NCBI RefSeq assembly: GCF_003945235.1
Contig: NZ_RSDW01000001.1
Span: forward strand, 4,710,001 to 4,742,000
DNA: 32,000 bases
Direction: 5' to 3'
Source: Edaphobacter aggregans
Lineage (GTDB): Bacteria > Acidobacteriota > Terriglobia > Terriglobales > Acidobacteriaceae
The position numbers and the translations under genes are program-made. The notes under the pieces are model-generated. The model was not told the DNA's origin and ran no database searches. It worked only from the letters and a program-made list of their open reading frames with translations. Positions 4,746 through 28,234 of the stretch are shown in pieces (positions within the stretch are counted from its first letter, which is position 1; every line of letters begins with the position of its first letter).

Positions 4746-5597
4746 ATGTCAAAATCCACTGCAACGCCGATACGTGTGATCGAGGAAACGCCTAACTACT
4801 GGAGAGCCGAATTCGACTATCCGCCCTTCAACGTGGTTGATGGCGATGTCTTTCAAGCGCTTCAGGACCTCCTCATCCGGATGGAGACGAGCGAGAGTCT
4901 GCGGGTGATCGTTTTCGAGAGTGCGCTCCCCGACTTTTATCTGTCGCATTTCGATCTGACCGGGAAGCTCGGCAATGTCATGACGGGGATAGGGCCTTCG
5001 GGCTTGCCCATACTGATGGATACGTTTGTGCGGCTGACAAAAGTGCCCGTAGTCAGCCTGGCAAAGATCAGAGGCTGCGTGCGTGGCGTCAGCAGCGAGT
5101 TCGTTCTTGCGTGCGATATGCGTTTCGCCTCGCGGGAGAATCTGAAACTGGGTCATCCCGAACTTGGGGTCGGGCTGCATCCAGGCGGCGGAGGCACCGA
5201 GCGACTTCCCCATCTGGTCGGACGCGGGCGAGCGCTTGAAATCGTTCTCAGTGCCAACGACTTCGATGGTGAATGGGCCGAACGATACGGCTATGTAAAC
5301 CGTTCACTGCCGGACGCTGAGTTGGACAGCTTCGTCGATGCCCTCGCGCGCCGGATCAGCTCTTTCGATAAGCCAGCTCTCGCTGCCGCCAAGAACCTCG
5401 TCAATGAAGTCTCGTTGCCCGAAGCTGATCGGCTCCTCGCGGCGTTCACGTCGTTTGGCACGGCACTTGGCTGGCCGGCTGCTCAGAAACGTGTCGGAGC
5501 TGTGTTGGAGCGCGGGCTTCAACGTGATACCGATTATGAGAAGAATTGGCCAGATAGCCTCGGTGCCCTGTCGGACCGAAGAATTGAGGAAGGGTGA
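4746..5597 (+). CDS. enoyl-CoA hydratase/isomerase (crotonase) family protein
   Basis: 283-aa ORF with crotonase-like segments (VIVFESALPDFYLSHFDL, ACDMRFASRE..LGHPELGVGLHPGGGGTERL). GAGGAGGAG lies upstream of the ATG. Confidence 0.75.
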   Translation: MSKSTATPIRVIEETPNYWRAEFDYPPFNVVDGDVFQALQDLLIRMETSESLRVIVFESALPDFYLSHFDLTGKLGNVMTGIGPSGLPILMDTFVRLTKVPVVSLAKIRGCVRGVSSEFVLACDMRFASRENLKLGHPELGVGLHPGGGGTERLPHLVGRGRALEIVLSANDFDGEWAERYGYVNRSLPDAELDSFVDALARRISSFDKPALAAAKNLVNEVSLPEADRLLAAFTSFGTALGWPAAQKRVGAVLERGLQRDTDYEKNWPDSLGALSDRRIEEG

Positions 5598-15021: not shown

Positions 15022-15675
15022 TCACAAACGCGTTATACGTGTCCTTTCAAGCCTGGAAACGGCTCCGTGGAGCACTTCGTCTTCACTCAGCGCACGAATG
15101 AGTGACTTCCTTGCTCTCAGCAAGCGCGACTTTATCGCGACAAGCGAAGCCCGTGTCCGTGCGGCAACTTCGGACACAGTGACCTCCTCCGAACAACGAA
15201 TCTCGGTGGCCTCTCGGAGTAACGGCGGCAAATGCCGTACAGCCTTTCGGAGTTTGAGGTTTCTCTCTCGCTCAAGAAAGCGGCGCTCTGGATCCAATCC
15301 CGGATCGTAACTTTGCAAATGGGATAACATATCCCCGTCGAAAGGACTCTCAGGATGGGCCCGCTTTTTCCGAACGATCATCAGCGCAGAGTTGATCGCA
15401 ATGCGCGTAAGCCAAGTGGGAAACTTCGACCTTCCATCAAACTTATTGAGGTGAATGAACGCCTTTAGCAGTGATTCCTGCAATCCATCCTCTGCATCTT
15501 CTTCGCTCCGAGTAATTCGGTGAATCGAGCGCAAAATACTACTCGAGTGGCGCCTGCAAAGTTTGGCATAGGCCAGATGCATTCCCGCTTTTGCTGAGAT
15601 GACGAGCGCCTCGTCGGACGCAACTGCTAACGTACTTCCCATTGGAGAGTCTGCTCCTGCATCAAACGGATTCAT
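15022..15675 (-). CDS. RNA polymerase ECF-type sigma-70 family factor
   Basis: Region 2 (DAEDGLQESLLKAFIHLNKFDGRSKFPTWLTRIAINSALMIVRKKR) and region 4 (TVSEVAARTRASLVAIKSRLLRARKSL). The start is at the ATG preceded by GGAGGA; the ATG at 15687 is an alternative. Confidence 0.85.
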   Translation of the reverse strand: MNPFDAGADSPMGSTLAVASDEALVISAKAGMHLAYAKLCRRHSSSILRSIHRITRSEEDAEDGLQESLLKAFIHLNKFDGRSKFPTWLTRIAINSALMIVRKKRAHPESPFDGDMLSHLQSYDPGLDPERRFLERERNLKLRKAVRHLPPLLREATEIRCSEEVTVSEVAARTRASLVAIKSRLLRARKSLIRALSEDEVLHGAVSRLERTRITRL

Positions 15676-15713
15676 CGGTTCCTCCATTGCATCGATACAA
15701 GAGCACAGTCAGT

Positions 15714-16142
15714 TCATCTGATTCCCAGTAACGCACGCGGAGCACGTTCGGTAAGATCTTTTGCCGTGTGACCTGCCATCAGCCAGCCATGCTTCCGCAT
15801 CCCCAGAACCAGCAGATCCGAGTGATGTCTCTTCGTGCAATCGATAATGGTGCCCACTTCGTCTCCACTGATCAACTCGGCATCGATTACCAGTCCTGCC
15901 GCCTTGGCCTGTTGTCGGGCTTCGACTTGGAGTGCGCTGTACCTAGCTCTCTTCTCCTCGGTATCAGTCCAGTGGACAGCCGGTACTGCACTCATCGCGA
16001 AGGAGTAGTAGCTGGGAAGCGGCTCAAGGACGGTGACCACACTGAGCTCTGCCCGTAGCGCTTTCGCTAACTCGATTGACAAGCGAAGCGCCCTGCCAGC
16101 TTCGGGCGAGTCATCATAAGCAACCATGATCTTGTGAAACAT
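15714..16142 (-). CDS. universal stress protein (UspA family)
   Basis: MFHKIMVAYDDSPEAGRALRLSIELAKALRAELSVVTV...HHSDLLVLGMRKHGWL...TAKDLTERAPRALLGIR. AGGAGG lies upstream of the ATG. Confidence 0.9.
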   Translation of the reverse strand: MFHKIMVAYDDSPEAGRALRLSIELAKALRAELSVVTVLEPLPSYYSFAMSAVPAVHWTDTEEKRARYSALQVEARQQAKAAGLVIDAELISGDEVGTIIDCTKRHHSDLLVLGMRKHGWLMAGHTAKDLTERAPRALLGIR

Positions 16143-16242: not shown

Positions 16243-16710
16243 TCACGGGGGCGATGGCACGGTTGTGCGGTCTTCCTTCCGTGAGGATCGTGCATTACGG
16301 CTGGTTAACCGGGTAACGATCGCAAAGAGGAGGCTCACCGAGATTCCGCACATCAACACGCCGATGATGCTCTCCAGCGGCCCAAGCGTGCGCCAGTTCG
16401 ACGGGAGACTCAAGTCATTGCAGCCGAGCGTCGAATAACTGCTCGCGGAGAAGTAGATCGAAGAGTCCCATGACGGTAGACACCTCCAGCGATAGAAGCA
16501 TGCCCACAGCAGAATCTCCATTCCGTGCAGGACAACGACTGCTGCTGTAAACCGCACAAGCAACGCTGCAGAACGAATGGCGCCAAGCTCCTGCATATCT
16601 CCTCCTAACGCACGTCGCACCCACACGATGAGAATCGCGACTCCTGCAGACTGTAGCCACAGCGTGACCGTGATGAGAGGCAACTCGGCGCCAAATCGAT
16701 GAACAGACAT
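16243..16710 (-). CDS. ion-channel-like membrane protein (Ion_trans_2 / K+ channel pore fold) with a non-canonical filter TLGCND
   Basis: Pore-region pattern WDSSIYFSASSYSTLGCNDLSLP flanked by TM helices, where canonical K+ channels have T-x-G-Y-G-D. The ATG at 16710 lies 23 nt after the outer-membrane gene stop and is preceded by AAAGGAAAA. Confidence 0.65.
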   Translation of the reverse strand: MSVHRFGAELPLITVTLWLQSAGVAILIVWVRRALGGDMQELGAIRSAALLVRFTAAVVVLHGMEILLWACFYRWRCLPSWDSSIYFSASSYSTLGCNDLSLPSNWRTLGPLESIIGVLMCGISVSLLFAIVTRLTSRNARSSRKEDRTTVPSPP

Positions 16711-16733
16711 TGGTTTTCCTTTCGCCGTTCGGC

Positions 16734-18176
16734 TTATTTCCAACCACCGCCCAGCGCTTTATAGAGCTGGACTAGGCTCTGGTACTCGTTATTGCGCGCC
16801 TGTGCCAGGGTCAGTTCGGCATTGAAAAGAGACCGCTGACTGTCAAGGACATCGAGGTAGTTCGACGTGCCGCCTCGATAACGCATGAGTGACACGTTGA
16901 CGGACTCCTGGAGATCCTTCACGGATTGTTCCTGGCGTTCGCGTACAGCGTGATTCTTGTCATAACCAATCAATGCATCCGAGACATCTCCGAACGCGCG
17001 CTGAATGGTCTGCTCATAGCCAATCAGGGCCTGCCGTTCCTCGGACTTCGCATAACGTAGGTTATTGCGCAGGTAACCGCCCTCGAAAATTGGCTGCGAG
17101 GCTGCCGCCGCATAGGTACCGATTCCGGGCGGCGCCGGAATATGCGAGCCGGCGAACTGGCTATGACCAAAAGCAGCGCCGCCAGAACCGAGGAGCGAGA
17201 TTTGCGGAAAAAACATTGCTTTGGCAACGCCAATGTTGGCATTCGCGGCTACCAGGTTTTCCTCAGCTTGATGAATGTCGGGCCTGCGTTCGAGCAACTG
17301 CGAAGGAAGGCCTGTGGGCAGCTGAGGTGGCAAAGTCTCGTTCCACTTCCAGCCGTCCGGAGTTTCAATGGCAAGGACCTCACCGCGAGGGACGTTGTCC
17401 GGATACTTTCCCAGCAGAATGTTGATCGCGTTTTCCGTCTGGCCGATCTGCCGTTCGAGATCGGGGATCTGCGCGTTTGCCGCATCGAGTACTTGCCGGG
17501 CTTGTAGCACATCAAGCGTTGTTGCAACACCGTGCTGCAGACGCGACTCAGTAAGCTTCACCGAATCCTGCTGGGTGCGCACGGTCTCTTCGGCGATCTG
17601 AAGCTGGAGGTCCAGATCGCGGAGAAGAAAGTAATCGCTCGCGACGTCGCTCACCAGTGTCAGGACTACGGTCTGTTGTGCGTCCTGTGTACCCAACAGT
17701 TGGGCCCGTGCCGCTTCTGTTTCGCGCCGATAGCGGCCGAAGAGATCAACCTGGAAGACGGCGTCCCCGGCGAGCGAAAAGATGTTCGACTTGATGTTCT
17801 CGTCGGTCTTTCCGCCGCTGAAAGTTGGGTCGAGGGAAACTTGCGGAAACTGGTTCGACCGTGCGATGCCTACCTGGGCCCTCGCGGCAGTGACGCGCTC
17901 GACTGCGAGTTGTAGATCATAGTTCTGCTTCAACGCCGTGCGGATCAAGTCTTGCAGTTGAGGATCGTGGAATACCTCCCACCATGGCAGATCGGCAAAC
18001 GATGCGGTTTGTGATGCAGCCTGTTGCGATTGGTCCGGGCCGTGGAAGGCCGGAGGCGTCGGCACCGCCGGCCGATGATAGTTGGGGCCGACCGTACAGC
18101 CGGAGAGCATAGCGGCCGACAGGAGAAGGAACCGTGCGGATCTTGTGCCGAAACGGTCTTGAAATCTATTACGCAT
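16734..18176 (-). CDS. RND efflux outer membrane factor lipoprotein (NodT/OprM family)
   Basis: Lipobox [11 protein letters not shown] after [16 protein letters not shown], with tandem OEP-type repeats and a C-terminal [15 protein letters not shown]. The ATG overlaps the RND pump stop by 8 nt (ATGCGTAA). Confidence 0.9.
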
Positions 18177-21100
18177 CTTGTTTGTCCTCCGCGATTTCAC
18201 CGTGCTGGGGTGCGGGTGCCGTGAAACGAGCCCGGGCCGCTGTGGACCATCGCTCCACGAGGTAGAAGATTGCGGGGACCGTGAAGATGCCGAGTACACT
18301 TGCGGCGGTCATTCCGCCGATCACGGTGGTCCCCATAATCTGACGTGCGACCGAGCCGGCGCCGGAGGCAGTCCACAGCGGCACACAGCCGAGAATGAAC
18401 GCGAACGAGGTCATCATGATGGGTCGCAGGCGAAGACGCGCACCTTCGAGCGCCGCATCGATGAGCGGCTTGCCTTGTTCGTACTGCTCTTTGGCAAACT
18501 CGACGATCAGAATCGCGTTCTTGGCGGCCAGGCCGATCAGCATCACCAGACCGATCTGCGCATAGACATCGTTCTCCATCTGGACCATGTACGGCGGCAG
18601 AAAGAGGCCCAGTACAACGCGGCGCAGCCATAACACTCCGAACGCACCGAAAACCGCGACCGGTGTGCTTAGCAGTACGCTAAACGGCAGACTCCAACTT
18701 TCGTAGAGCGCCGCAAGAATCAGGAAGACGAAGAGCAATGAGAATCCGAAGATGACCGACGACGGAACTCCCTCTTCTGCCTTTTGCTCCTGGTAAGACA
18801 TGCCCAAGTAGTCAAAACCCATTTCATGAGGCATGGTTTGCTTGAAGACTTCTTCGAGAGCCGCCCTTGCTTGATCGGAGCTGTAACCAGGGGCGGCGCT
18901 GGCGTTGATCTGCGCGGAGCGGTACTCGTTGTAGCGCATTGTGAATTCAGGGCCAGAGCGTGTCGCAAAGGATGCGAGAGCGGATAGCGGCACGGTTTCG
19001 CCCTGGTTGTTGCGCACGTAGAACTGTCCGAGGTTATCGGTGTTCGACCGGTAGGGAGCTTCAGACTCGATGTAGACCTGCCAGGTGCGGCCGAATTCGT
19101 TGTAGTAGTTGATGAACAGGCCGCCCATGTTGGCTTGAATTGTGTTGTAAACGTCGGTCAAAGCGACGCCTTGTTTCAGCACCTTCTCCTTGTCGACCTG
19201 GACGAACTCTTGCGGCACGCTCGGTATGAAGGTGGAGAAGATGGAGCCGATCTCAGGGCGCTTGCGAGCGGCCGTCAGGAATTTGTTGAGGTTGTCCGCA
19301 AGATATGGGACGTCCCTACCGGCGCGGTCTTCGAGGACGAACGAGACACCTCCCGAAGTGCCTACGCCCGGAATCGCCGGTGGCGAGAAGCTGAAGACCG
19401 TTCCTGCGGGCAGATTCGCGAGTTCCTTGTTCAAACGTGCCTTGATGGCCTGATACTGATCTGCCCGGTTCTTTCGCTCGTCCCAAGGTTTCAGGCTGAC
19501 CCAGAAGAAGCCGTTGTAGCTGGTGCGGACATAGCTGAGCAGGCTGAAGCCAACCACGCTGGTGGTGTACTGTACGCCCGGTGTGTCGGCGAGAATCTTC
19601 TCCACTTGTCTCGCCGCCGCGCTGGTGCGTTCCAGCGAAGCCGCATTGGGAAGCTGCATGTTGATGTAGAGGTATCCCTGATCCTCATCGGGCAGGAAGC
19701 TGGACGGTAGACGGCTGCCAAAGAAGAGTCCGGCCGCGCCGCAGGCTACCAGCAGCACCAGCACCATTGCCCCCCTGCGAAGAAGCACGCCGGACCAGTG
19801 GACGTAGCCTCCGGTGGCGCGTTCGAACAGGCGATTGAACCAGTTGAAGAAACGCTGCAAAGGCCCATGGCGCTCTCTCTTTTTGCGCAGTAGGAGCCCC
19901 GAAAGTGCGGGACTGAGTGTGAGCGCATTGAAGGCGGAAAGCACTACCGAGATGGCGATGGTGACTGCAAATTGTTGATACAACCTTCCCGTGATGCCAG
20001 GGATGAAAGCGGTCGGTACGAAGACCGCCGATAGAACCAATGCGATTCCAATAACCGGTCCGGTCAACTCGTCCATCGCTTTTCGAGCGGCGTCTTTGGG
20101 ATTCAAGCCCTCCTCGATGTGGCGCTGCACGCCTTCGACAACGACGATCGCGTCGTCTACCACCAGGCCGATGGCCAGTACCAGCCCGAACATTGAGAGG
20201 GTGTTGATGGAAAAGCCGAAGAGTGGGAATAGGATGAAGGTTCCAACCAGGGACACAGGCACGGCCAGTAATGGAATCAACGTGGCGCGCCAGTCCTGCA
20301 GGAAGAGATAGACCACCAGGATCACCAGCACAATTGCAATCAAGAGAGTCACGAGGATCTCTTTCATGCCTTCCGTAACGGGGGCTGTCTGATCGAGAGA
20401 TATGGCATAATCAACGTCCTCCGGGAGGCGCTGCTTCATCTGGGCCAGGAGCTTTCGGACCCCCTGCACAGTTTGAACAGCATTGGTCCCGGGCAACTGA
20501 TAGACGGCGATAGCCGCAGCGGGCTTGCCATTCAGACGACTGATCAGGCTGTAGTCCTGCGTACCCAACTCGACGCGGGCCACATCTTTTACGCGGACGA
20601 TGCCACCATTGGGGGCTTCGCGGATAACGACGTTGCCAAACTCTTCGGACGATTTCAGACGTCCCTGCGCCAGCACGCCATAGGTAAACTGCTGGTCCGC
20701 GGGAGCCGGTTCACCTCCGACCTGACCTGCGGGGTTGACTGTGTTTTGCGCCTGGATGGCGTTCGAGATGTCTGTAACGGTGATGCCGAGCTTCGCCAAC
20801 TGGTCGGGCTTCACCCACAGTCTCATGGCATACTGGCCCGAACCGAAGACCTGGGTCTGGCCCACGCCGTACAAGCGCGCGACAGGATCGTTGAGGTTTA
20901 TGTAGGCATAGTTCGCCAGATAGGTTGCGTCGTGCGTACCACGCGGCGAATACAGGGCGATAAGCATGAGCGGAGCGGTGGTGGACTTCTTGAGAGTGAC
21001 TCCGTAGCTGTTGACCGAAGGCGGGAGCTGACCGGTTGCCAATTGTTCGCGCGATTGCGTAAGCAGCAGGTCAGTGTTGGGGTCGGTTTTGAGATCGAAA

Positions 21101-21381
21101 TCGACCAGCAACGATGTTTGCTGGTTGGCCGTGGCATTTAGGGAGTACATGTAGGTCATGTCGTCCACGCCGTTCACTTGCTGCTCGATGGGCGTGGCGA
21201 CTGCGTCTTCGAGTGTCTTGGCATCGGCGCCCGGGTAGTTGGCTTGCAACCTGATCTCGGGCGGTGCGATGTTGGGAAACTGTGCTATCGGCAGGGTCGC
21301 GATGGTAACTGCGCCGACGATGACCATAAGGATCGCGATGACCATCGCCACAATGGGGCGATTTATGAAAAACTTTGACAT
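18169..21381 (-). CDS. RND multidrug efflux permease (AcrB/MexB-like, HAE1 family)
   Basis: 1070-aa ORF beginning [43 protein letters not shown], with 12-TM/two-large-loop architecture typical of AcrB. Confidence 0.95.
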
Positions 21382-21424: not shown

Positions 21425-22657
21425 TTACTCGACGTTGTTCTTGAATGGCTTGGTTTGTACCGTCATTCCCGGCCGGACATTTTGTTGGCCTTCGACAATC
21501 ACACGGTCGCCCGGCTTCAATCCACCATCGATGACCCACATTGTGTCTGTGCGTTGTCCCACTTGCACGGGACGCATGCTGACGCGGTTGTCCTTATCGA
21601 CAACAGCAACGAGATTGCTGCCCTGCTGTTCGTTGACGGCCGCTTGTGGAATTAGCAGGGCATTCTGCTGCACGCGGACGATGGCGCGAACCTTGCCGTA
21701 CTGCCCGGGGCGCAAAACATTGCCAGGGTTTGGAAACAGGGCGGCGAGCTGGATGGCACCGGTGTTCGGGTTCACCTGGCGATCGGCGAAATAAAATTGG
21801 CCCTCTTGTGGATACGTTGTTCCATCGGCGAGGATGAGCTGCAGCTTCCAATGATCTTTCTCTGAATCTGAAAACCTCTTTTGCAACGCCAGATATTGCT
21901 GTTCGCTGACGGTGAAGTAATCTCTGATGGGATCGAGCGTGGAGACTGTAGTCAGCGGGCTGCTGCTGGAGCTGACCAGGTCGCCGACCTGTGCCTGGGC
22001 GATGCCGGCAATGCCGTCGATTGGCGCGACGATGCGCGTGAAACTGAGATTGATTGAGGCGGTTTCAACCGTGGCCTCGCTGGCTTTGATTTGAGCTTTC
22101 GCTGCCGCAATGCCCGCCTCGGCTGCCTTTACCTGGGCCTTATTTGCAAAATCCGTCTGCGTCGCATTATCGAAATCCTGCTTGCTGACGGCGTCGACTT
22201 TTGCCAGAGGCTCGTATTTCTCCACATTGAGCTGGCTCTTGAGCCGGTTAGCTTCAGATGTCGAAAGCTGAGCCTCGTCCTGAGCCAGCTGCGCCTGAGC
22301 CTGAGCGAACTGGCCCCGTGCCTGATCGAGCGCCGCCTGGAATGGGCGAGGATCGATCTCAAACAGAATTTGTCCCTTGCGGACGAACGATCCTTCCTTA
22401 TAGTTGCGCGTAAGCAGGTAACCCGTGACTTGCGCTTTCACATCGGCATTTACCTGCCCTGTGAGGGTTCCGATCCATTCTCCATTGATTGGAACATCTC
22501 TCTGCTCTACCAGAGCGACCTCAACCAGGGGCGACGATGGCGTCTGCGTGGAAGGCTTCGCCGCGGAACGAGAGACTGCGACGCCCAGAATGGCCGCGAG
22601 CAGAACACCTGATACCCATGCCACTTGCTTTGGTTTCAGAACGGACTTGATCTTCAT
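21425..22657 (-). CDS. RND efflux periplasmic adaptor (membrane fusion protein, AcrA/MexA-like)
   Basis: N-terminal anchor, a coiled-coil segment (QAALDQARGQFAQAQAQLAQDEAQL...) and beta-barrel motifs (TRIVAPIDGIAG). AGGAGA lies upstream of the ATG. Confidence 0.9.
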   Translation of the reverse strand: MKIKSVLKPKQVAWVSGVLLAAILGVAVSRSAAKPSTQTPSSPLVEVALVEQRDVPINGEWIGTLTGQVNADVKAQVTGYLLTRNYKEGSFVRKGQILFEIDPRPFQAALDQARGQFAQAQAQLAQDEAQLSTSEANRLKSQLNVEKYEPLAKVDAVSKQDFDNATQTDFANKAQVKAAEAGIAAAKAQIKASEATVETASINLSFTRIVAPIDGIAGIAQAQVGDLVSSSSSPLTTVSTLDPIRDYFTVSEQQYLALQKRFSDSEKDHWKLQLILADGTTYPQEGQFYFADRQVNPNTGAIQLAALFPNPGNVLRPGQYGKVRAIVRVQQNALLIPQAAVNEQQGSNLVAVVDKDNRVSMRPVQVGQRTDTMWVIDGGLKPGDRVIVEGQQNVRPGMTVQTKPFKNNVE

Positions 22658-23004
22658 TTGCTGCTCTCCTGTTGCCGGGATGTTGACCTGCGGGGAAGCT
22701 TTTTACTTGACGACTGCACCATGGCGCCTTCGCAAGAAGGCTGAGAAGTGAGATCCCCGATGAGGGTAGTCAGCCACACGCCTTCAACGATGAGACAGGC
22801 CCCCGCCAGATGAATGGCCGCGAGAAGATCGTGTCCGGCCTTATCGATCCCCGTCAGCTGTCTCAAATCGACTTCGATCTTTCGGTCTGGGCCCAGCGAA
22901 AAGCGCCAGGCGTTTTCTGTTTCGGCCACCCACGGGCCCTCCAGCCTGCCCGCGAGTTCCAGCCTGCATACCTTGCCGTCGTCGTAAATCGTGATGCGTA
23001 ACAT
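22654..23004 (-). CDS. small STAS-like (anti-sigma-antagonist fold) protein, first gene of the RND operon
   Basis: MLRITIYDDGKVCRLELAGRLEGPWVAETENAWRFSL...IEVDLRQLTGIDKAGHDLLAAIHLAGACLIVEG resembles SpoIIAA/STAS, but IDKAG replaces the phosphorylatable D-S-S-G. The stop overlaps the adaptor ATG (ATGA). I chose the start at the ATG at 23004; the track's 183-aa version begins at 23205. Confidence 0.6.
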   Translation of the reverse strand: MLRITIYDDGKVCRLELAGRLEGPWVAETENAWRFSLGPDRKIEVDLRQLTGIDKAGHDLLAAIHLAGACLIVEGVWLTTLIGDLTSQPSCEGAMVQSSSKKLPRRSTSRQQESSK

Positions 23005-23023
23005 ATCGTCGCCACTCTGTATG

Positions 23024-23038
23024 GCAGGGGGCGTGCCA
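23024..23038 (-). promoter_or_regulatory. candidate sigma-54 (-24/-12) promoter TGGCACG-N4-CTGC
   Basis: The minus strand reads TTTGGCACGCCCCCTGCCAT, with GG and GC separated by exactly 10 nt as in the consensus TGGCACG-N4-TTGC. It lies about 20 nt upstream of the STAS-like ATG, and a sigma-54 activator is encoded divergently. Confidence 0.55.
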
Positions 23039-23113
23039 AATCGCCGCAATTCGTAAACGTCAGCAGCGCCAGAGATTACGCGGTAGGGCCGAGATGCCGG
23101 GTGCCAGCGCTGT

Positions 23114-23158
23114 GGTAGCATGCTGCCGGAAAACTGGCAGATGCCACGGAGCGATCGC
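23114..23158. promoter_or_regulatory. cluster of palindromes; candidate activator binding sites (UAS)
   Basis: GGTAGCATGCTGCC (14-bp palindrome with one mismatched pair, 23114-23127), TGGCA-GA-TGCCA (23135-23146) and GCGATCGC (23151-23158). They lie about 90-130 bp upstream of the putative -24/-12 element. Confidence 0.35.
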
Positions 23159-23218
23159 CCGACACACTTGGGTGAATCGCTTTGACACCGATCGCAATCT
23201 AACAACGGGTAGCCACGT

Positions 23219-25297
23219 ATGCCTGTATCGAGTCACTCGCAACCGGTCACTCTCAGCGAAAGCCTTGTTTCGCGATACGAGGCGCTCGCCCGCATCGCGG
23301 AATTGATCCGGTCTCATCCGGAGGAAAAAGTCTTATTCCAGACCTGCGCGAGCGAACTGCATCAAGTGGTTGCATTCGATGGTCTAAGTTTGTTCGATCC
23401 GGCAGTCCATTGGGTCCAGTGGGATTTCCTCGAGCCTTATGACAATGCACTTGAGGCTCTCGCGGTCCGAGATATTCCGAAAGAGGAAACGGTCGCATGG
23501 TGGGTGTACCAGAATCAGCGGCCAGTAGTTATTCCGTCCATCGACCGCGAAACAAGTTTTCCCCTTGTGGTCGAGCGGCTTTCCAACTTAGGGCTTCGTT
23601 CGCTGTACGCCGTTCCCCTGAGCACGGCACACCGAAAGCTCGGAAGTCTGGTTTTTGCCAGCCACTCTGAAGACGCATACTCCAACGAGGATCAACAATT
23701 CTTGTCTTTGGTTGCTAATCAGATCGCCGTGGCAATGGACGATGCTCGTGCGCAGGCTCGTTTGAGGCTGCTCCTGGACATCACCAATCGCATTGTCACC
23801 AAGCTGGAGTTGCGCGACCTGCTTCGCGAAAGTGTCGCGAGTATAAGGCACTTCATGCAATGCGACAGCGTCGGCGTGGCTCTGCCCGATCCGGAAGATG
23901 GCGAATTACGGCGTTATGCTGTGGATTATGTCGGGTCCGAGGAGATGTCTGTCGGCTCCGCATCCGAGCGGACCAAGACCGTGTTCCGGACGGGCAACCC
24001 ACTGATCGCGACCAAGGACGAAGTCGCTGCTGATCCCCAGGGCGCGATGCCGAACTTGTCGCTCTGCCTTTATCCGCTGATCATCCGGGAACGCGTGCTC
24101 GGCGTGCTCGGTCTTGGCAGTTCGCGAGAGAATGCCTTCACCGAGGATGATCTTTCCTTCCTCGGTCAGGTGGCCAATCAAATCGCTCTCGCCGTTGAAA
24201 ATGCTCTCGCGTATGGGCAGGTTTCCGAACTCAAAGATAAGCTCGCGCAGGAAAATGTCTATCTCGAATCCGAGATCCGCAGTGAGCTTCATTTTGAGGA
24301 TATCGTCGGAAACAGCGAGCAGCTGCGCCGGGTTCTGAAAGATATTGAGACGGTAGCGCCCGCAGATTCCACTGTGCTCATTTATGGAGAGACGGGCACC
24401 GGGAAAGAGTTGATCGCTCGGGCGCTGCACGAGCTTAGCTCTCGGAAGCCGAACGCCTTTGTGAAGCTGAATTGTGCGGCGATTCCGACGGGGTTGCTCG
24501 AGAGCGAGCTGTTCGGCCACGAGAAAGGTGCATTCACTGGCGCCATCATGCAGCGCGTGGGGCGCTTTGAACTGGCGAATCGCGGAACCATTTTCCTGGA
24601 TGAGGTTGGCGAAATCCCGCTCGAACTGCAGCCAAAGCTCCTACGTGTTCTGCAGGAGCGGGAGTTCGAACGCCTGGGCAGCACGCGCACCATTCGCACT
24701 GACGCCCGGTTGATCGCCGCGACGAATCGCGATCTTAAGACCATGGTAGAGGAACAGAGATTCCGATCTGATTTGTATTATCGACTGAATGTCTTCCCCA
24801 TCCGCGTGCCATCGTTGCGGGAACGAAAAGAAGACATTCCTCTGCTTGTCCGCCACTTCGTCAAGGAATTCAGCCGCCGGAACCATCGGGTGATCGACAC
24901 CATTCCATCTGAAACCATGCAGGCGTTGATCCGCTATCAATGGCCAGGCAATATTAGAGAGCTTCAAAATGTGATCGAGCGGGCAGTGATTATCTCTGGG
25001 GGACCCGTTTTGAATGTGGCCGTCGCCGAACTCACCCCGGATGTGAGTTCTCCTCCAGTTCCTATTGTCACCAGCACCAAACCCGCCTCCCATGAGAGCC
25101 TTCAGGAGACGCTGGAAGAGACGGAGCGGAATCAGATTCTGCGTGCCCTGGAAGACGCGAATGGGGTAGTCGCGGGGCCGAAGGGAGCCGCAGCCCGTCT
25201 TGGAGTCAAGCGATCGACGCTCCAACTCAGGATGCAGAGGCTTGGAATCCGGCTGTCGCGAACTGCCGTTGATGACCGCAAGCAAACAGCGCAATGA
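23219..25297 (+). CDS. sigma-54-dependent transcriptional activator (bEBP), GAF-GAF-AAA+-Fis HTH architecture (FhlA-like)
   Basis: Walker A GETGTGKE, the sigma-54 contact motif GAFTGA (HEKGAFTGA), FRSDLYYRLNVFPI, WPGNIRELQNVIERA and a C-terminal HTH (AAARLGVKRSTLQLRMQRLGI). About 340 N-terminal aa form two GAF-like repeats. Confidence 0.93.
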   Translation: MPVSSHSQPVTLSESLVSRYEALARIAELIRSHPEEKVLFQTCASELHQVVAFDGLSLFDPAVHWVQWDFLEPYDNALEALAVRDIPKEETVAWWVYQNQRPVVIPSIDRETSFPLVVERLSNLGLRSLYAVPLSTAHRKLGSLVFASHSEDAYSNEDQQFLSLVANQIAVAMDDARAQARLRLLLDITNRIVTKLELRDLLRESVASIRHFMQCDSVGVALPDPEDGELRRYAVDYVGSEEMSVGSASERTKTVFRTGNPLIATKDEVAADPQGAMPNLSLCLYPLIIRERVLGVLGLGSSRENAFTEDDLSFLGQVANQIALAVENALAYGQVSELKDKLAQENVYLESEIRSELHFEDIVGNSEQLRRVLKDIETVAPADSTVLIYGETGTGKELIARALHELSSRKPNAFVKLNCAAIPTGLLESELFGHEKGAFTGAIMQRVGRFELANRGTIFLDEVGEIPLELQPKLLRVLQEREFERLGSTRTIRTDARLIAATNRDLKTMVEEQRFRSDLYYRLNVFPIRVPSLRERKEDIPLLVRHFVKEFSRRNHRVIDTIPSETMQALIRYQWPGNIRELQNVIERAVIISGGPVLNVAVAELTPDVSSPPVPIVTSTKPASHESLQETLEETERNQILRALEDANGVVAGPKGAAARLGVKRSTLQLRMQRLGIRLSRTAVDDRKQTAQ

Positions 25298-25575: not shown

Positions 25576-27009
25576 CTAACCACCAACAGTGAGTTCAGGC
25601 GCCGCAAGGTCTGCACTCTCACGCGCCCACGCGGTCGCAGAAGCCCATCCAAGAAACAGCACAATCGCTCCGCATCCCGTCATGATCCACCAGATCGGGT
25701 GCGTCGCCAGCGTGAAGCTGGATCCCTTGGCACGGCTCGAGCTCACCACCGTCCCTGCAATTGCCACGCCCAGCGCCGCGCCCACCTGCCGCGCGGTAGA
25801 AGCGATCGCCGCGGCCACACCCGCCTGCGCTAGAGGCATCCCCGCAACCGCACTGTTGGCAATCGCCGGATTCACCATCCCCAGCCCCAGGCCGAACAAA
25901 GCATAAGCCGCCAACAGCACAGCCAGAGGGGTCCCACGGGTAAGCTGTGTCATCAGCAACGTACTAAGCAAAAAGGATGTGCCCGCAGCGTAGAGCGATG
26001 GCCGTGTACCATACCGTCCGATTAATCGCCCGCTCCAGGGAGAACCCACCATCATCGCCAGCGCCAGCGGCAGCGTGGATAGCCCCGTATGGAACGCTGA
26101 GAACCCACGCACCTGCTGCAGGTAAAGCACATTCAGAAACAGGAAAGCCGAGAACGATGAGAACGCACTTAACCCAAGGATCGTAGCGCAGCTGAACGGC
26201 ACGCTGCGAAAGAATCGCAGGTCCACCAGCGGGTCGTTGCGCCGCGGTTCATAGAGTAGGAAGCCGATAAACGCCGCCCCAGCCGCAGTAAACAGCCCAC
26301 GGATCAGAGAGGAACTCCAACCTGCATCCGGCCCTTCAATGACCGCATACGTTAACGTCATCAGCCCCACGAACACCAGCGCTTGTCCCGCCGGATCGAA
26401 GGCCCGCGCCTGCGCGGCCTTCGACTCCGGCACATACACCGTCGCCAAGATGACAGCCGCAATCCCAATCGGCACGTTGATCCAGAAGATCGAACGCCAA
26501 CCCATTGCCTGCGTCAAAGCGCCGCCCAGCAGGGGTCCCAGCGCCAGTGCCAACCCCGCCACCGCGCCCCACACACCCACCGCCTTCGCCCGCGCCCTGG
26601 GTTCAGTAAAAACATTCGCAACGATGGAGAGCGCGACTGGATTGAGCATGGAAGCGCCCAGACCCTGCAGCGCACGATAAGCCACGAGTTGATCAATAGT
26701 ATGTGCCAGGCTGCAAAGCAGCGAACCCGCTACAAACAGCGTCAGCCCAATCTGAAACACCCGTCTTCGCCCGAATCGATCGGACATGGAACCCGACAGC
26801 ATCAGCAGACTCGCGATCACCAGCGTATACGCGTCGATAATCCATTGCAGTCCCGAAAGACTCGCTTGCAGATCATGCTGAATCGCTGGCAATGCCACGT
26901 TGACGATCGTCACATCCATGGCTATCAGCAGCACGCTCATGCAGCATATCCCCAGCACGAGATTCTGCCGAACAGGCCCGCGGCTGCTCGCGACCTCAGG
27001 CGAGCGCAT
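25576..27009 (-). CDS. MFS transporter, DHA2 (EmrB/QacA) drug:H+ antiporter family, 14-TM type
   Basis: MFS motif A (GSMSDRFGRRRV) and a long hydrophobic profile. I placed the start at the ATG at 27009 (MRSPEV), overlapping the isochorismatase stop by 14 nt; the track start at 27033 is a TTG. Confidence 0.88.
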   Translation of the reverse strand: MRSPEVASSRGPVRQNLVLGICCMSVLLIAMDVTIVNVALPAIQHDLQASLSGLQWIIDAYTLVIASLLMLSGSMSDRFGRRRVFQIGLTLFVAGSLLCSLAHTIDQLVAYRALQGLGASMLNPVALSIVANVFTEPRARAKAVGVWGAVAGLALALGPLLGGALTQAMGWRSIFWINVPIGIAAVILATVYVPESKAAQARAFDPAGQALVFVGLMTLTYAVIEGPDAGWSSSLIRGLFTAAGAAFIGFLLYEPRRNDPLVDLRFFRSVPFSCATILGLSAFSSFSAFLFLNVLYLQQVRGFSAFHTGLSTLPLALAMMVGSPWSGRLIGRYGTRPSLYAAGTSFLLSTLLMTQLTRGTPLAVLLAAYALFGLGLGMVNPAIANSAVAGMPLAQAGVAAAIASTARQVGAALGVAIAGTVVSSSRAKGSSFTLATHPIWWIMTGCGAIVLFLGWASATAWARESADLAAPELTVGG

Positions 27010-27565
27010 TGATGATCTCCTGACTCGAGCCAACTCGTCCGATCATCGGGAAGATCTTCTCCATCGCAAACGTATGCGCGTCAGTCTCAAGTGTGGAGCA
27101 CGCATCCTCCGCGATCACCACCTGAAAGCCGACGGCCACCGCATGCCGCGCCGTAGACTCCACGCCAAAGTTGGTTGCCACACCGCCCAGCACAATCGTC
27201 GTCACGCCCATCTTCTTCAACGTGTCCTCCATCTCTGTCTGGCCAAACGCGCTCCAGTGGCGCTTCGTGATCAGCAGATCACTCTCCTGAAACCCAGCCG
27301 CAGGCACTAGCTCAGAGGCAATCGCGGGGAACGGTCCGGCGGTTGGATCCATGCGCGAGCGATCCACAATCAACGGCATCAGGTTGTTCAAATCCACCCG
27401 CACATAGACAACCTTGGCATCTTTCTCGCGGAAAGCCTTGGCTATCTTGCTTGAAACTTTCACCACCGCATCGGCGGAATATGGCTGGACAGGCATGCCC
27501 AGAATGCCATGCTGCAGATCGATCAGGACAAGAGCTGTAGTTTTCGAATCAAGCGAAAGGGCCAT
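26996..27565 (-). CDS. isochorismatase family (cysteine hydrolase) protein
   Basis: TALVLIDLQHGI...ITKRHWSAFGQTEMEDTLKKMGVTTIVLGGVATNFGVESTARHA has the Asp/Lys/Cys-type isochorismatase-fold pattern. AGGAGA lies upstream of the ATG. Confidence 0.88.
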   Translation of the reverse strand: MALSLDSKTTALVLIDLQHGILGMPVQPYSADAVVKVSSKIAKAFREKDAKVVYVRVDLNNLMPLIVDRSRMDPTAGPFPAIASELVPAAGFQESDLLITKRHWSAFGQTEMEDTLKKMGVTTIVLGGVATNFGVESTARHAVAVGFQVVIAEDACSTLETDAHTFAMEKIFPMIGRVGSSQEIINALA

Positions 27566-27583
27566 CGTGTTCTCTCCTGTAAT

Positions 27584-27641
27584 AAGTCGAGGGTATCCTC
27601 AACTTATCTTTTATTCTAATATACGAGGATGCCCTCGACTT
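27584..27641. promoter_or_regulatory. 17-bp inverted repeat bracketing the divergent promoter region; right arm covers the TetR start codon
   Basis: AAGTCGAGGGTATCCTC (27584-27600) pairs with GAGGATGCCCTCGACTT (27625-27641) at 16 of 17 positions. The 24-bp AT-rich spacer contains TAATAT. Confidence 0.6.
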
Positions 27642-28234
27642 CTGCAAATCCAAGACGCCGCCCGCAACAGAACCGGGCCGAGGTCCGTCGCGCCAGCTTC
27701 CTCCAGGCCGCCGAGCAACTCTTCGGCACCCTTGGCTACGAGGCCGTCACCATGACCGCCATTGCCGAGCAGGCACAGGCGTCCATCGGCACCCTCTATG
27801 ACTATTTCCCAGACAAGCCCACCCTTGCCCTCGCCCTCATCACGCAGTACATCCGTGAGGCCGAGGTGCATTGGGCGAAGCTCCTGCAACGCCCACCCGC
27901 CCGCACCAAGGCCTCCATAGCGGACGTTTTCATCGAAGGCATCCTCGAATTCGCGAACGACCGCATCGCCTATCTCCCGCTGTTGGGTGCGCCCCTCGCC
28001 TACGCCCGCACCAAGGCCGCCCGAGAACCTCTGCGGAGAACCATCGCCACCGCACTCCAGAACCTCAAGCCCAGCCTGTCCGCGGATCGAGCCTTTCTCA
28101 ATGCCCAGGTCATCGTCGAAATCATCAAAGGCATGCTCGGGGTCTACCGCCAGGCCACGCTGAAAGATAGGGAAGCCGTAGTCACCGAGTTCAAGAAGGT
28201 CATGCGCCTCTACCTCACCGATACCCTCGCCTAA
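27629..28234 (+). CDS. TetR/AcrR family transcriptional regulator
   Basis: NRAEVRRASFLQAAEQLFGTLGYEAVTMTAIAEQAQASIGTLYDYFPDKPTL is a TetR HTH. The gene is divergent from the isochorismatase-MFS pair. Confidence 0.88.
   Translation: MPSTSANPRRRPQQNRAEVRRASFLQAAEQLFGTLGYEAVTMTAIAEQAQASIGTLYDYFPDKPTLALALITQYIREAEVHWAKLLQRPPARTKASIADVFIEGILEFANDRIAYLPLLGAPLAYARTKAAREPLRRTIATALQNLKPSLSADRAFLNAQVIVEIIKGMLGVYRQATLKDREAVVTEFKKVMRLYLTDTLA

Follow-up and report, generated by a model that had tools for sequence, protein, structure and literature searches.

A conserved sigma-54-type promoter element and a divergent GAF-domain enhancer-binding protein predicted to control a STAS-headed RND efflux operon in Edaphobacter aggregans

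The 32,000-nucleotide stretch of the Edaphobacter aggregans genome analyzed in this study (hereafter the window; assembly GCF_003945235.1, contig NZ_RSDW01000001.1, positions 4,710,001 to 4,742,000 of the forward strand) contains an operon for a tripartite resistance-nodulation-division (RND) efflux pump on its minus strand and, divergently oriented on the plus strand, a gene for a bacterial enhancer-binding protein (bEBP). A sigma-54-type -24/-12 element lies between them, and we consider it highly probable, from sequence comparison, that this element is a functional, bEBP-dependent promoter that drives the efflux operon. This interpretation is based on the conservation of the -24/-12 element, the presence of a dyad at enhancer distance, the paired bEBP gene, the lack of a recognizable sigma-70-type promoter, and the recurrence of comparable motifs upstream of distant members of the gene family that heads the operon. 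Directly visible in the sequences compared are the parts and their order, how they are conserved, and the joint change of regulator type and enhancer. Positions given below are those of the window, unless a related locus (L-numbers) is named.

The predicted -24/-12 element, TGGCACGCCCCCTGC, occupies 23038-23024 of the minus strand. The consensus applied was YTGGCACG-N4-TTGCW, with GG and GC exactly 10 nt apart; the element has the GG-N10-GC spacing and agrees with TGGCACG-N4-TTGC at 10 of 11 specified positions, and the consensus search thus confirmed the single-mismatch motif that had been proposed in an earlier, sequence-only reading of this DNA. The GC of TGGCACGCCCCCTGC is separated by 19 nt from the ATG at 23004, the minus strand around the promoter and the start codon being GATTTGGCACGCCCCCTGCCATACAGAGTGGCGACGATATGTTACGC. 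With C23024 taken as the -12 position, transcription would start near 23012, which is the usual +1 position, 12 nt after C23024, and would leave a predicted leader of about 8 nt (GCGACGAT, 23005-23012, minus strand), in agreement with the length stated earlier. Scans of 22900-23320 for sigma-70-type promoters and terminators found none, and an Rfam scan of the same region found no RNA element.

Conservation of the motif upstream of orthologous operons, which the sequence-only reading had named as a check, was clearly observed. A genome scan for the first gene of the operon yielded matches in an Alloacidobacterium metagenome-assembled genome (MAG; 89% identity), in several Acidobacteriaceae and Bryobacterales MAGs, and, more distantly, in a Phycisphaerae MAG (locus L010). 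A metagenome scan added 80 soil contigs, resulting in 90 related loci in all. The GG-N10-GC pattern was retained in 68 of 69 distinct upstream regions, the Phycisphaerae locus being the exception at the promoter position, and in 62 of them the first G lies exactly 33 nt before the ATG; the distance of 19 nt from GC to ATG is conserved in the main clade. Both the GG and the TGC are invariant in all 68 regions, while variation is seen in the neighboring CAC, in all five bases of the spacer, and in the two positions following TGC. When 45 distinct complete intergenic regions were aligned, only 24 of 214 columns were invariant, including all five key sigma-54 positions (hypergeometric p 1.2e-5). 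The base preceding TGC is not among the invariant positions, and it represents the only departure of the window copy from its relatives. Additionally, in every locus with an intact operon and enough contig beyond the small first open reading frame (ORF), the adaptor gene of the pump comes next.

Motifs of the same kind were found upstream of distant family members. This set consisted of 12 genes for STAS-fold proteins homologous to the first-gene product (identity ≤50%, including L010 and L100), and the 200 nt upstream of each gene were searched for GG-N10-GC sites scoring at least 8 of the 11 consensus positions. All 12 had a qualifying motif 27-158 nt upstream, such as TGGCACACCCCTTGC, TGGCACGCCGTTTGC, TGGCAAGCCAGTTGC, and TGGAACAGCCTTTGC. 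Shuffle p values for the single loci lay between 0.0005 and 0.22; combined by Fisher's method, they gave a p of 3e-12. Since the upstream regions of these genes cannot be aligned with that of the window, the motifs do not reflect shared descent of the DNA. The genomic context was viewed for 11 distant members with 28-49% identity (among L091-L103): seven have, in divergent or co-directional orientation, a neighboring gene for a GAF-containing bEBP; three are on contigs too short to tell; and L100 has neither a regulator nor a pump nearby. The downstream genes that could be identified in the distant loci encode adaptors or outer-membrane factors; in L097, the STAS gene is followed by those for an outer-membrane factor, an adaptor, and an RND permease, in this order. 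The STAS family appears to be generally associated with efflux modules under sigma-54/bEBP control.

A predicted upstream activating sequence (UAS), the dyad CTGCCAGTTTTCCGGCAG with the core TGCC-N8-GGCA, was recognized by alignment of the loci at 23123-23140. It is centered about 119 nt upstream of the predicted +1, which is a normal enhancer distance, the range expected for a UAS being about 80-150 nt. In nearly all loci the dyad begins 131-136 nt before the ATG, including L007, whose STAS protein has 50% identity, and its invariant columns are 23139, 23136, 23134, 23132-23131, and 23127-23126. The sequence-only reading had noted several palindromes where a UAS would be expected; several do occur at 23100-23160, but only CTGCCAGTTTTCCGGCAG is conserved across the loci. 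The palindromes GCGATCGC and CAGCGCTG are present in the window and are non-palindromic in most relatives, and they were rejected as candidates. In one subclade (L005, L006, L059, L068, L072, L073, L078, and L088), the dyad is present in two copies 22 bp apart (e.g., TGCCCAGTTCTGGGCA), of which the downstream copy is a perfect TGCCCA/G-N4-T/CGGGCA and the upstream copy is near-perfect.

The number of dyads covaries with the type of regulator. Single copies occur with a GAF-GAF bEBP, whereas in members of the duplicated-dyad subclade with enough flanking sequence the divergent regulator is a PAS-PAS-GAF-GAF bEBP of approximately 1,010-1,040 aa; examples of this larger protein (1011-1044 aa) are encoded at 646-3780 of L006 and 745-3780 of L078, both on the minus strand. 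Enhancer and regulator thus change together, as would be expected if the bEBP binds the putative UAS.

The bEBP gene of the window (23219-25297, plus strand) encodes a protein of 692 aa with two GAF domains, an AAA+ domain, an AAA lid, and a Fis-type helix-turn-helix (HTH). Pfam matches were obtained for both GAF domains, Sigma54_activat (E 2.4e-72), AAA_lid_14, and HTH_8, and the translation shows GETGTGKE (Walker A), DEVGE, and GAFTGA, which bears out the earlier description of a complete, divergently encoded bEBP with two GAF sensor domains. The best NCBIfam model was FhlA, with 567.6 bits against a cut-off of 830 and only residues 179-679 aligned. Assignment as an FhlA orthologue was rejected on account of the score below the equivalog cut-off and the partial alignment, and the protein is, judged from its domain order, FhlA-like in layout. 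Among the 52 loci whose upstream flank measured at least 1 kb, 44 have a divergent bEBP gene, mostly with 208-221 nt between the two start codons; the pairing of regulator and operon, a further check that had been suggested beforehand, is therefore widely conserved. The presence of rpoN is implied by the conservation of intact bEBPs.

According to the mechanism that we propose, sigma-54 RNA polymerase would be held at 23038-23024 as a closed complex, and the GAF-GAF bEBP would bind, as an oligomer, to the dyad at 23140-23123. A small cytoplasmic ligand would be sensed via the GAF domains, upon which ATP hydrolysis by the bEBP would open the promoter. Transcription from near 23012 would then produce a single, nearly leaderless mRNA for the STAS protein, the RND adaptor, the multidrug-type permease, and the outer-membrane channel. 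The sigma-54 dependence, the start site, and the DNA binding in this scheme are those that we infer from the conserved sequences described above.

Several observations weigh against this interpretation. The window contains three sites with no more than one mismatch to the consensus, compared with 0.81 expected, and 4 of 100 shuffled sequences reach three; for sites with at most two mismatches, the count is 18 against 13.2 expected. By the window sequence on its own, the motif does not exceed chance, and its significance comes from its position and conservation. The base before TGC is C in the window, compared with G in most loci and T in the consensus. The majority of the 90 loci are closely related, with 70-100% protein identity, and their conservation is partly due to shared descent; the distant loci are taken as the independent evidence. 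A few loci (L018-L021, L075, L076, and L083) keep the promoter and the dyad without an adjacent bEBP gene. The element is palindromic in most loci, with arms that are perfect reverse complements, and can be read as the binding site of a dimer. Finally, the predicted leader is only about 8 nt long and lacks a Shine-Dalgarno sequence.

The length of the predicted leader is conserved at about 8 nt in the main clade and varies elsewhere in the family. L007 and L091 would have a leader of about 11 nt and L098 one of about 17 nt, the latter with a Shine-Dalgarno sequence; in L094 and L097, the leader would extend to about 40 nt and include a good Shine-Dalgarno sequence. In L103 (3970-4003, TGGCATGCGCCGTGC), the GC lies merely 12 nt before the GTG start codon of the STAS gene, and the predicted transcript would be essentially leaderless (approximately 1 nt). 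The short leader looks like a property of the expression of this gene family and not like a sign of a wrong promoter call. Short-leader sigma-54 transcripts without a Shine-Dalgarno sequence raise the question of how they are translated.

The symmetry of the element suggests an alternative in which TGGCAC-N5-GTGCCA would be a palindromic operator for a dimeric repressor, or for the bEBP, with the operon transcribed from an unrecognized sigma-70-type promoter. The opposite strand also reads GG-N10-GC in 59 of the 69 regions, and half-sites of a related kind (TGGCA/TGCCA) occur repeatedly farther upstream. However, changes in a single arm (TGGCAT, TGGCAG, or TGGAAC on one side; GTGCGA, GTGCAA, or GTGCCT on the other) are never compensated in the other arm, with GG and TGC remaining invariant, and it is because of this lack of compensatory change that the operator was rejected. 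Furthermore, the palindrome is lost in L005, L007, L009, and L091 with the forward sigma-54 reading intact, distant relatives carry non-palindromic canonical motifs, no sigma-70-like promoter was found in 22900-23320, and no repressor gene is conserved beside the operon. These results make an operator very improbable. The same symmetry would allow the element to act in both directions, with a second, long-leader transcript entering the bEBP gene and resulting in positive autoregulation, which would be compatible with sigma-54 control of the efflux operon. The plus strand reads TGGCAGGGGGCGTGC at 23022-23036, the reverse reading TGGCACGGGGCGTGC equals the forward one in quality in most loci, and no sigma-70-like promoter was detected for the bEBP gene. 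We regard a bidirectional element as unlikely, as the reverse reading is lost in nine loci that keep the forward one (including L004, L060, and L068) and in the distant relatives, invariant blocks beside the bEBP start suggest a separate promoter for this gene, and the symmetry may simply stem from the consensus TGGCAC...TGC.

In a further alternative, the motif would be fortuitous or vestigial, with the bEBP controlling other genes and the pump being expressed constitutively. It is extremely improbable that chance or decay accounts for key positions that are invariant across 68 distinct regions, for the independent recurrence of the motif upstream of 12 distant family members, and for a conserved dyad that lies at enhancer distance and changes with the regulator type, even though a 32-kb sequence is expected to contain approximately 0.8 such matches, a leader of 8 nt is odd, and some loci lack the bEBP. 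A functional sigma-54 promoter under control of the bEBP is the reading that we retain in the following.

The first gene of the operon (22654-23004, minus strand) encodes a protein of 116 aa with a predicted SpoIIAA-like STAS fold and a basic C-terminal tail. The earlier claim that the promoter lies directly upstream of the first gene of a tripartite RND operon was correct with regard to the operon; the first gene itself encodes this STAS-fold protein and not an RND component. We found 365 homologues of the product. All 16 that were aligned begin with MLRI, and ATG 23004 is therefore the true start; alternative starts at TTG 23049 and TTG 23205 were rejected on the same basis and because L007 has an in-frame stop codon 18 nt upstream. 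Pfam STAS_2 matched the window protein weakly, and 33 of 45 family members matched it, below the gathering score. An AlphaFold2 model (45 diverse members) had a mean predicted local distance difference test (pLDDT) score of 84, and the block means over residues 1-70 were 92-97. The top PDB matches in Foldseek were SpoIIAA (1th8_B, E 1.6e-5, TM-score of approximately 0.6), TM1442, and RsbV. As far as the model indicates, the first-gene product has a STAS fold.

The phosphorylatable Ser of the D-S-x-G motif, at the start of helix 3, aligns with Lys55 (D-K-A-G) in the window protein, at a position that is variable in the family, and no genes for a partner kinase or phosphatase of the STAS protein were found in the window. 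Of the features of a SpoIIAA-like anti-sigma-factor antagonist, the window protein shows the fold but neither the conserved Ser nor, within the window, the partner genes. The fold is shared with SpoIIAA, RsbV, and MlaB, of which MlaB is also encoded with a transporter, whereas the partners here would be an RND pump and a bEBP instead of an anti-sigma factor or an ATP-binding cassette (ABC) ATPase. We can only guess that the STAS protein exerts feedback on the bEBP or else is a cytoplasmic accessory of the pump. Speculatively, the former would be analogous to PspA-PspF, NifL-NifA, and HrpV/HrpG-HrpS, and the latter to MlaB acting for MlaF. The family is uncharacterized and large, with 1724 clusters at 50% identity in a profile search, and it appears to belong to the sigma-54 regulon. 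In several gene calls (P0182, P0206, P0212, and P0190), the STAS domain is joined to an outer-membrane efflux protein, and these fusions are probably read-through artifacts of the gene order seen in L097.

Downstream of the STAS gene, the operon contains genes for all three components of the pump. The adaptor (periplasmic membrane fusion protein, 410 aa; 21425-22657, minus strand) matches TIGR01730 with 251.7 bits against a cut-off of 94.9, as well as HlyD families. The permease (1070 aa; 18169-21381, minus strand) is of the hydrophobe/amphiphile (multidrug) type, with 1055.8 bits for Pfam ACR_tran and 1273.7 bits for NCBIfam NF000282 (cut-off 1250); a heavy-metal permease of the CusA/CzcA type was rejected, since the score was 315.8 bits and 701 are needed. 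The outer-membrane factor is a NodT-type lipoprotein (16734-18176, minus strand; TIGR01845, 395.7 bits against a cut-off of 210). Within the long ORF, the TIGR01845 alignment begins at residue 60. Translation likely starts from ATG 18176 (MRNRFQ...), with an overlap of 8 nt with the permease stop, and a lipoprotein-like signal, LSGC, is readable in the translated sequence. The pump genes overlap or are no more than 43 nt apart, and adaptor, permease, and outer-membrane factor all score above their NCBIfam cut-offs, by which the locus is classified as a tripartite HAE1-type RND efflux system. The STAS stop and the adaptor start overlap as ATGA, and this overlap, together with the 8-nt overlap of permease and outer-membrane factor, suggests a single transcript for the STAS gene and the pump.

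RND pumps are the main intrinsic defense of Gram-negative bacteria against drugs and toxins, and they are normally controlled by TetR, MarR, LysR, AraC, or two-component regulators at sigma-70 promoters. FhlA and NorR of Escherichia coli are one-component GAF bEBPs that sense ligands and activate sigma-54 promoters from inverted-repeat UASs, and norR is divergent from the norVW detoxification operon. The bEBP of the window shares this layout with FhlA and NorR, whose targets are a hydrogenase or a nitric oxide reductase rather than an efflux pump. In AcrR-acrAB, MexR-mexAB, and TtgR-ttgABC, a ligand-sensing regulator is likewise encoded divergently from a tripartite RND operon, but these systems de-repress sigma-70 promoters, whereas the window is predicted to use ATP-dependent sigma-54 activation and to be silent without its activator. 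The sigma-54/bEBP control logic is unusual for RND pumps.

Only one link between sigma-54 and an RND system was found in the searchable literature, the efflux-like operon PP2810-13 of Pseudomonas putida, which has an experimentally supported GG-N10-GC promoter depending on CbrB, sigma-N, and integration host factor (IHF) (PMC6296734). It resembles the window in its GG-N10-GC promoter and in a bEBP bound upstream, the binding being a prediction only in the window. In contrast, PP2810-13 is RND-like by HHpred alone, and the pump of the window is a clear-cut AcrB-type tripartite system. CbrB is a global response regulator of carbon status, is not encoded adjacently, recognizes non-palindromic subsites, and has no GAF domain, whereas the window has a dedicated, divergent GAF-GAF regulator. 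No STAS gene was reported at PP2810-13 (PMC6296734). Two surveys of sigma-54 regulons mention neither RND pumps nor Acidobacteria (PMC3162934, PMC12316311). Searches of the searchable literature found no description of a module consisting of STAS, bEBP, sigma-54, and RND, and nothing relevant on STAS with RND or on Acidobacteria with sigma-54 and RND. All parts are of known kinds, but their combination and its breadth are undescribed in that literature.

A sigma-54/bEBP circuit would be essentially off without a signal, activated by ATP hydrolysis, and directly responsive to an intracellular ligand. Conservation across many uncultured Acidobacteriota suggests that this type of efflux control is typical of the lineage in an abundant soil phylum. 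The ligand of the GAF sensor would reveal the export substrate of the pump, and the locus offers a promoter/enhancer pair for use in reporters. Tentatively, and with some doubt, we suggest that soil Acidobacteriota and neighboring phyla may harbor a widespread, undescribed module in which a GAF or PAS-GAF bEBP acts on a short-leader or leaderless sigma-54 promoter, a STAS gene heads tripartite efflux operons, and the STAS protein is a functional partner. Within such a module, the STAS protein might act back on the bEBP through partner switching, as an anti-activator or a co-sensor, or it might be a subunit of the pump in the cytoplasm.

Further conserved elements were identified in the intergenic alignment. 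A CTGGCAC at 23101-23107 (minus strand), between the UAS and the promoter, has no GC at -12 distance and might serve as an additional half-site or as a decoy -24 element. Beside the bEBP start, the blocks TTAGATT (23202-23196) and GATTCAC (23178-23172) are conserved on the minus strand within 23172-23202, with invariant columns at 23201, 23199-23197, and 23178-23177 in the 45 distinct intergenic regions. These blocks are probably the bEBP gene's own promoter or operator, and the promoter scan found no sigma-70 consensus at them. Inspection by eye only revealed no convincing IHF site between the UAS and the promoter. The other two window sites with at most one mismatch to the sigma-54 consensus, at 5456-5470 (plus strand, without the GC) and at 21682-21696 (plus strand, antisense within the adaptor gene), were treated as chance matches.

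Rearranged versions of the locus were also observed. In L018-L021 (e.g., 774-2978 of L020), the bEBP gene is cut to its first 31 codons, and genes for an aldo/keto reductase and an AraC-type regulator replace the rest. At 3986-5057 of L043, the bEBP and STAS genes are intact, but no adaptor gene is left and only a 173-aa fragment of the RND permease remains, with a gene for a MacB/FtsX-type permease beyond. These five loci look like cases of recent decay or rearrangement and show only that the parts are separable. In L096 (approximately 310-469), a long inverted repeat of about 130 nt with tandem CAATGTAGGG units lies between the sigma-54-like motif and the STAS start and resembles a miniature element that has been inserted or a hairpin in the leader.

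In the window, the operon strand continues downstream with a gene for a small Ion_trans_2 membrane protein (16243-16743, minus strand), which overlaps the end of the outer-membrane factor gene, followed by genes for a universal stress protein (15714-16142, minus strand) and a sigma factor of the extracytoplasmic function (ECF) type (15022-15687, minus strand). On the other side, at 25576-28234, genes for a major facilitator superfamily (MFS; DHA-type) pump and an isochorismatase lie beside a divergent TetR regulator gene. This TetR/MFS pair represents the ordinary logic of efflux control, adjoining the pump that is predicted to be under sigma-54 control.

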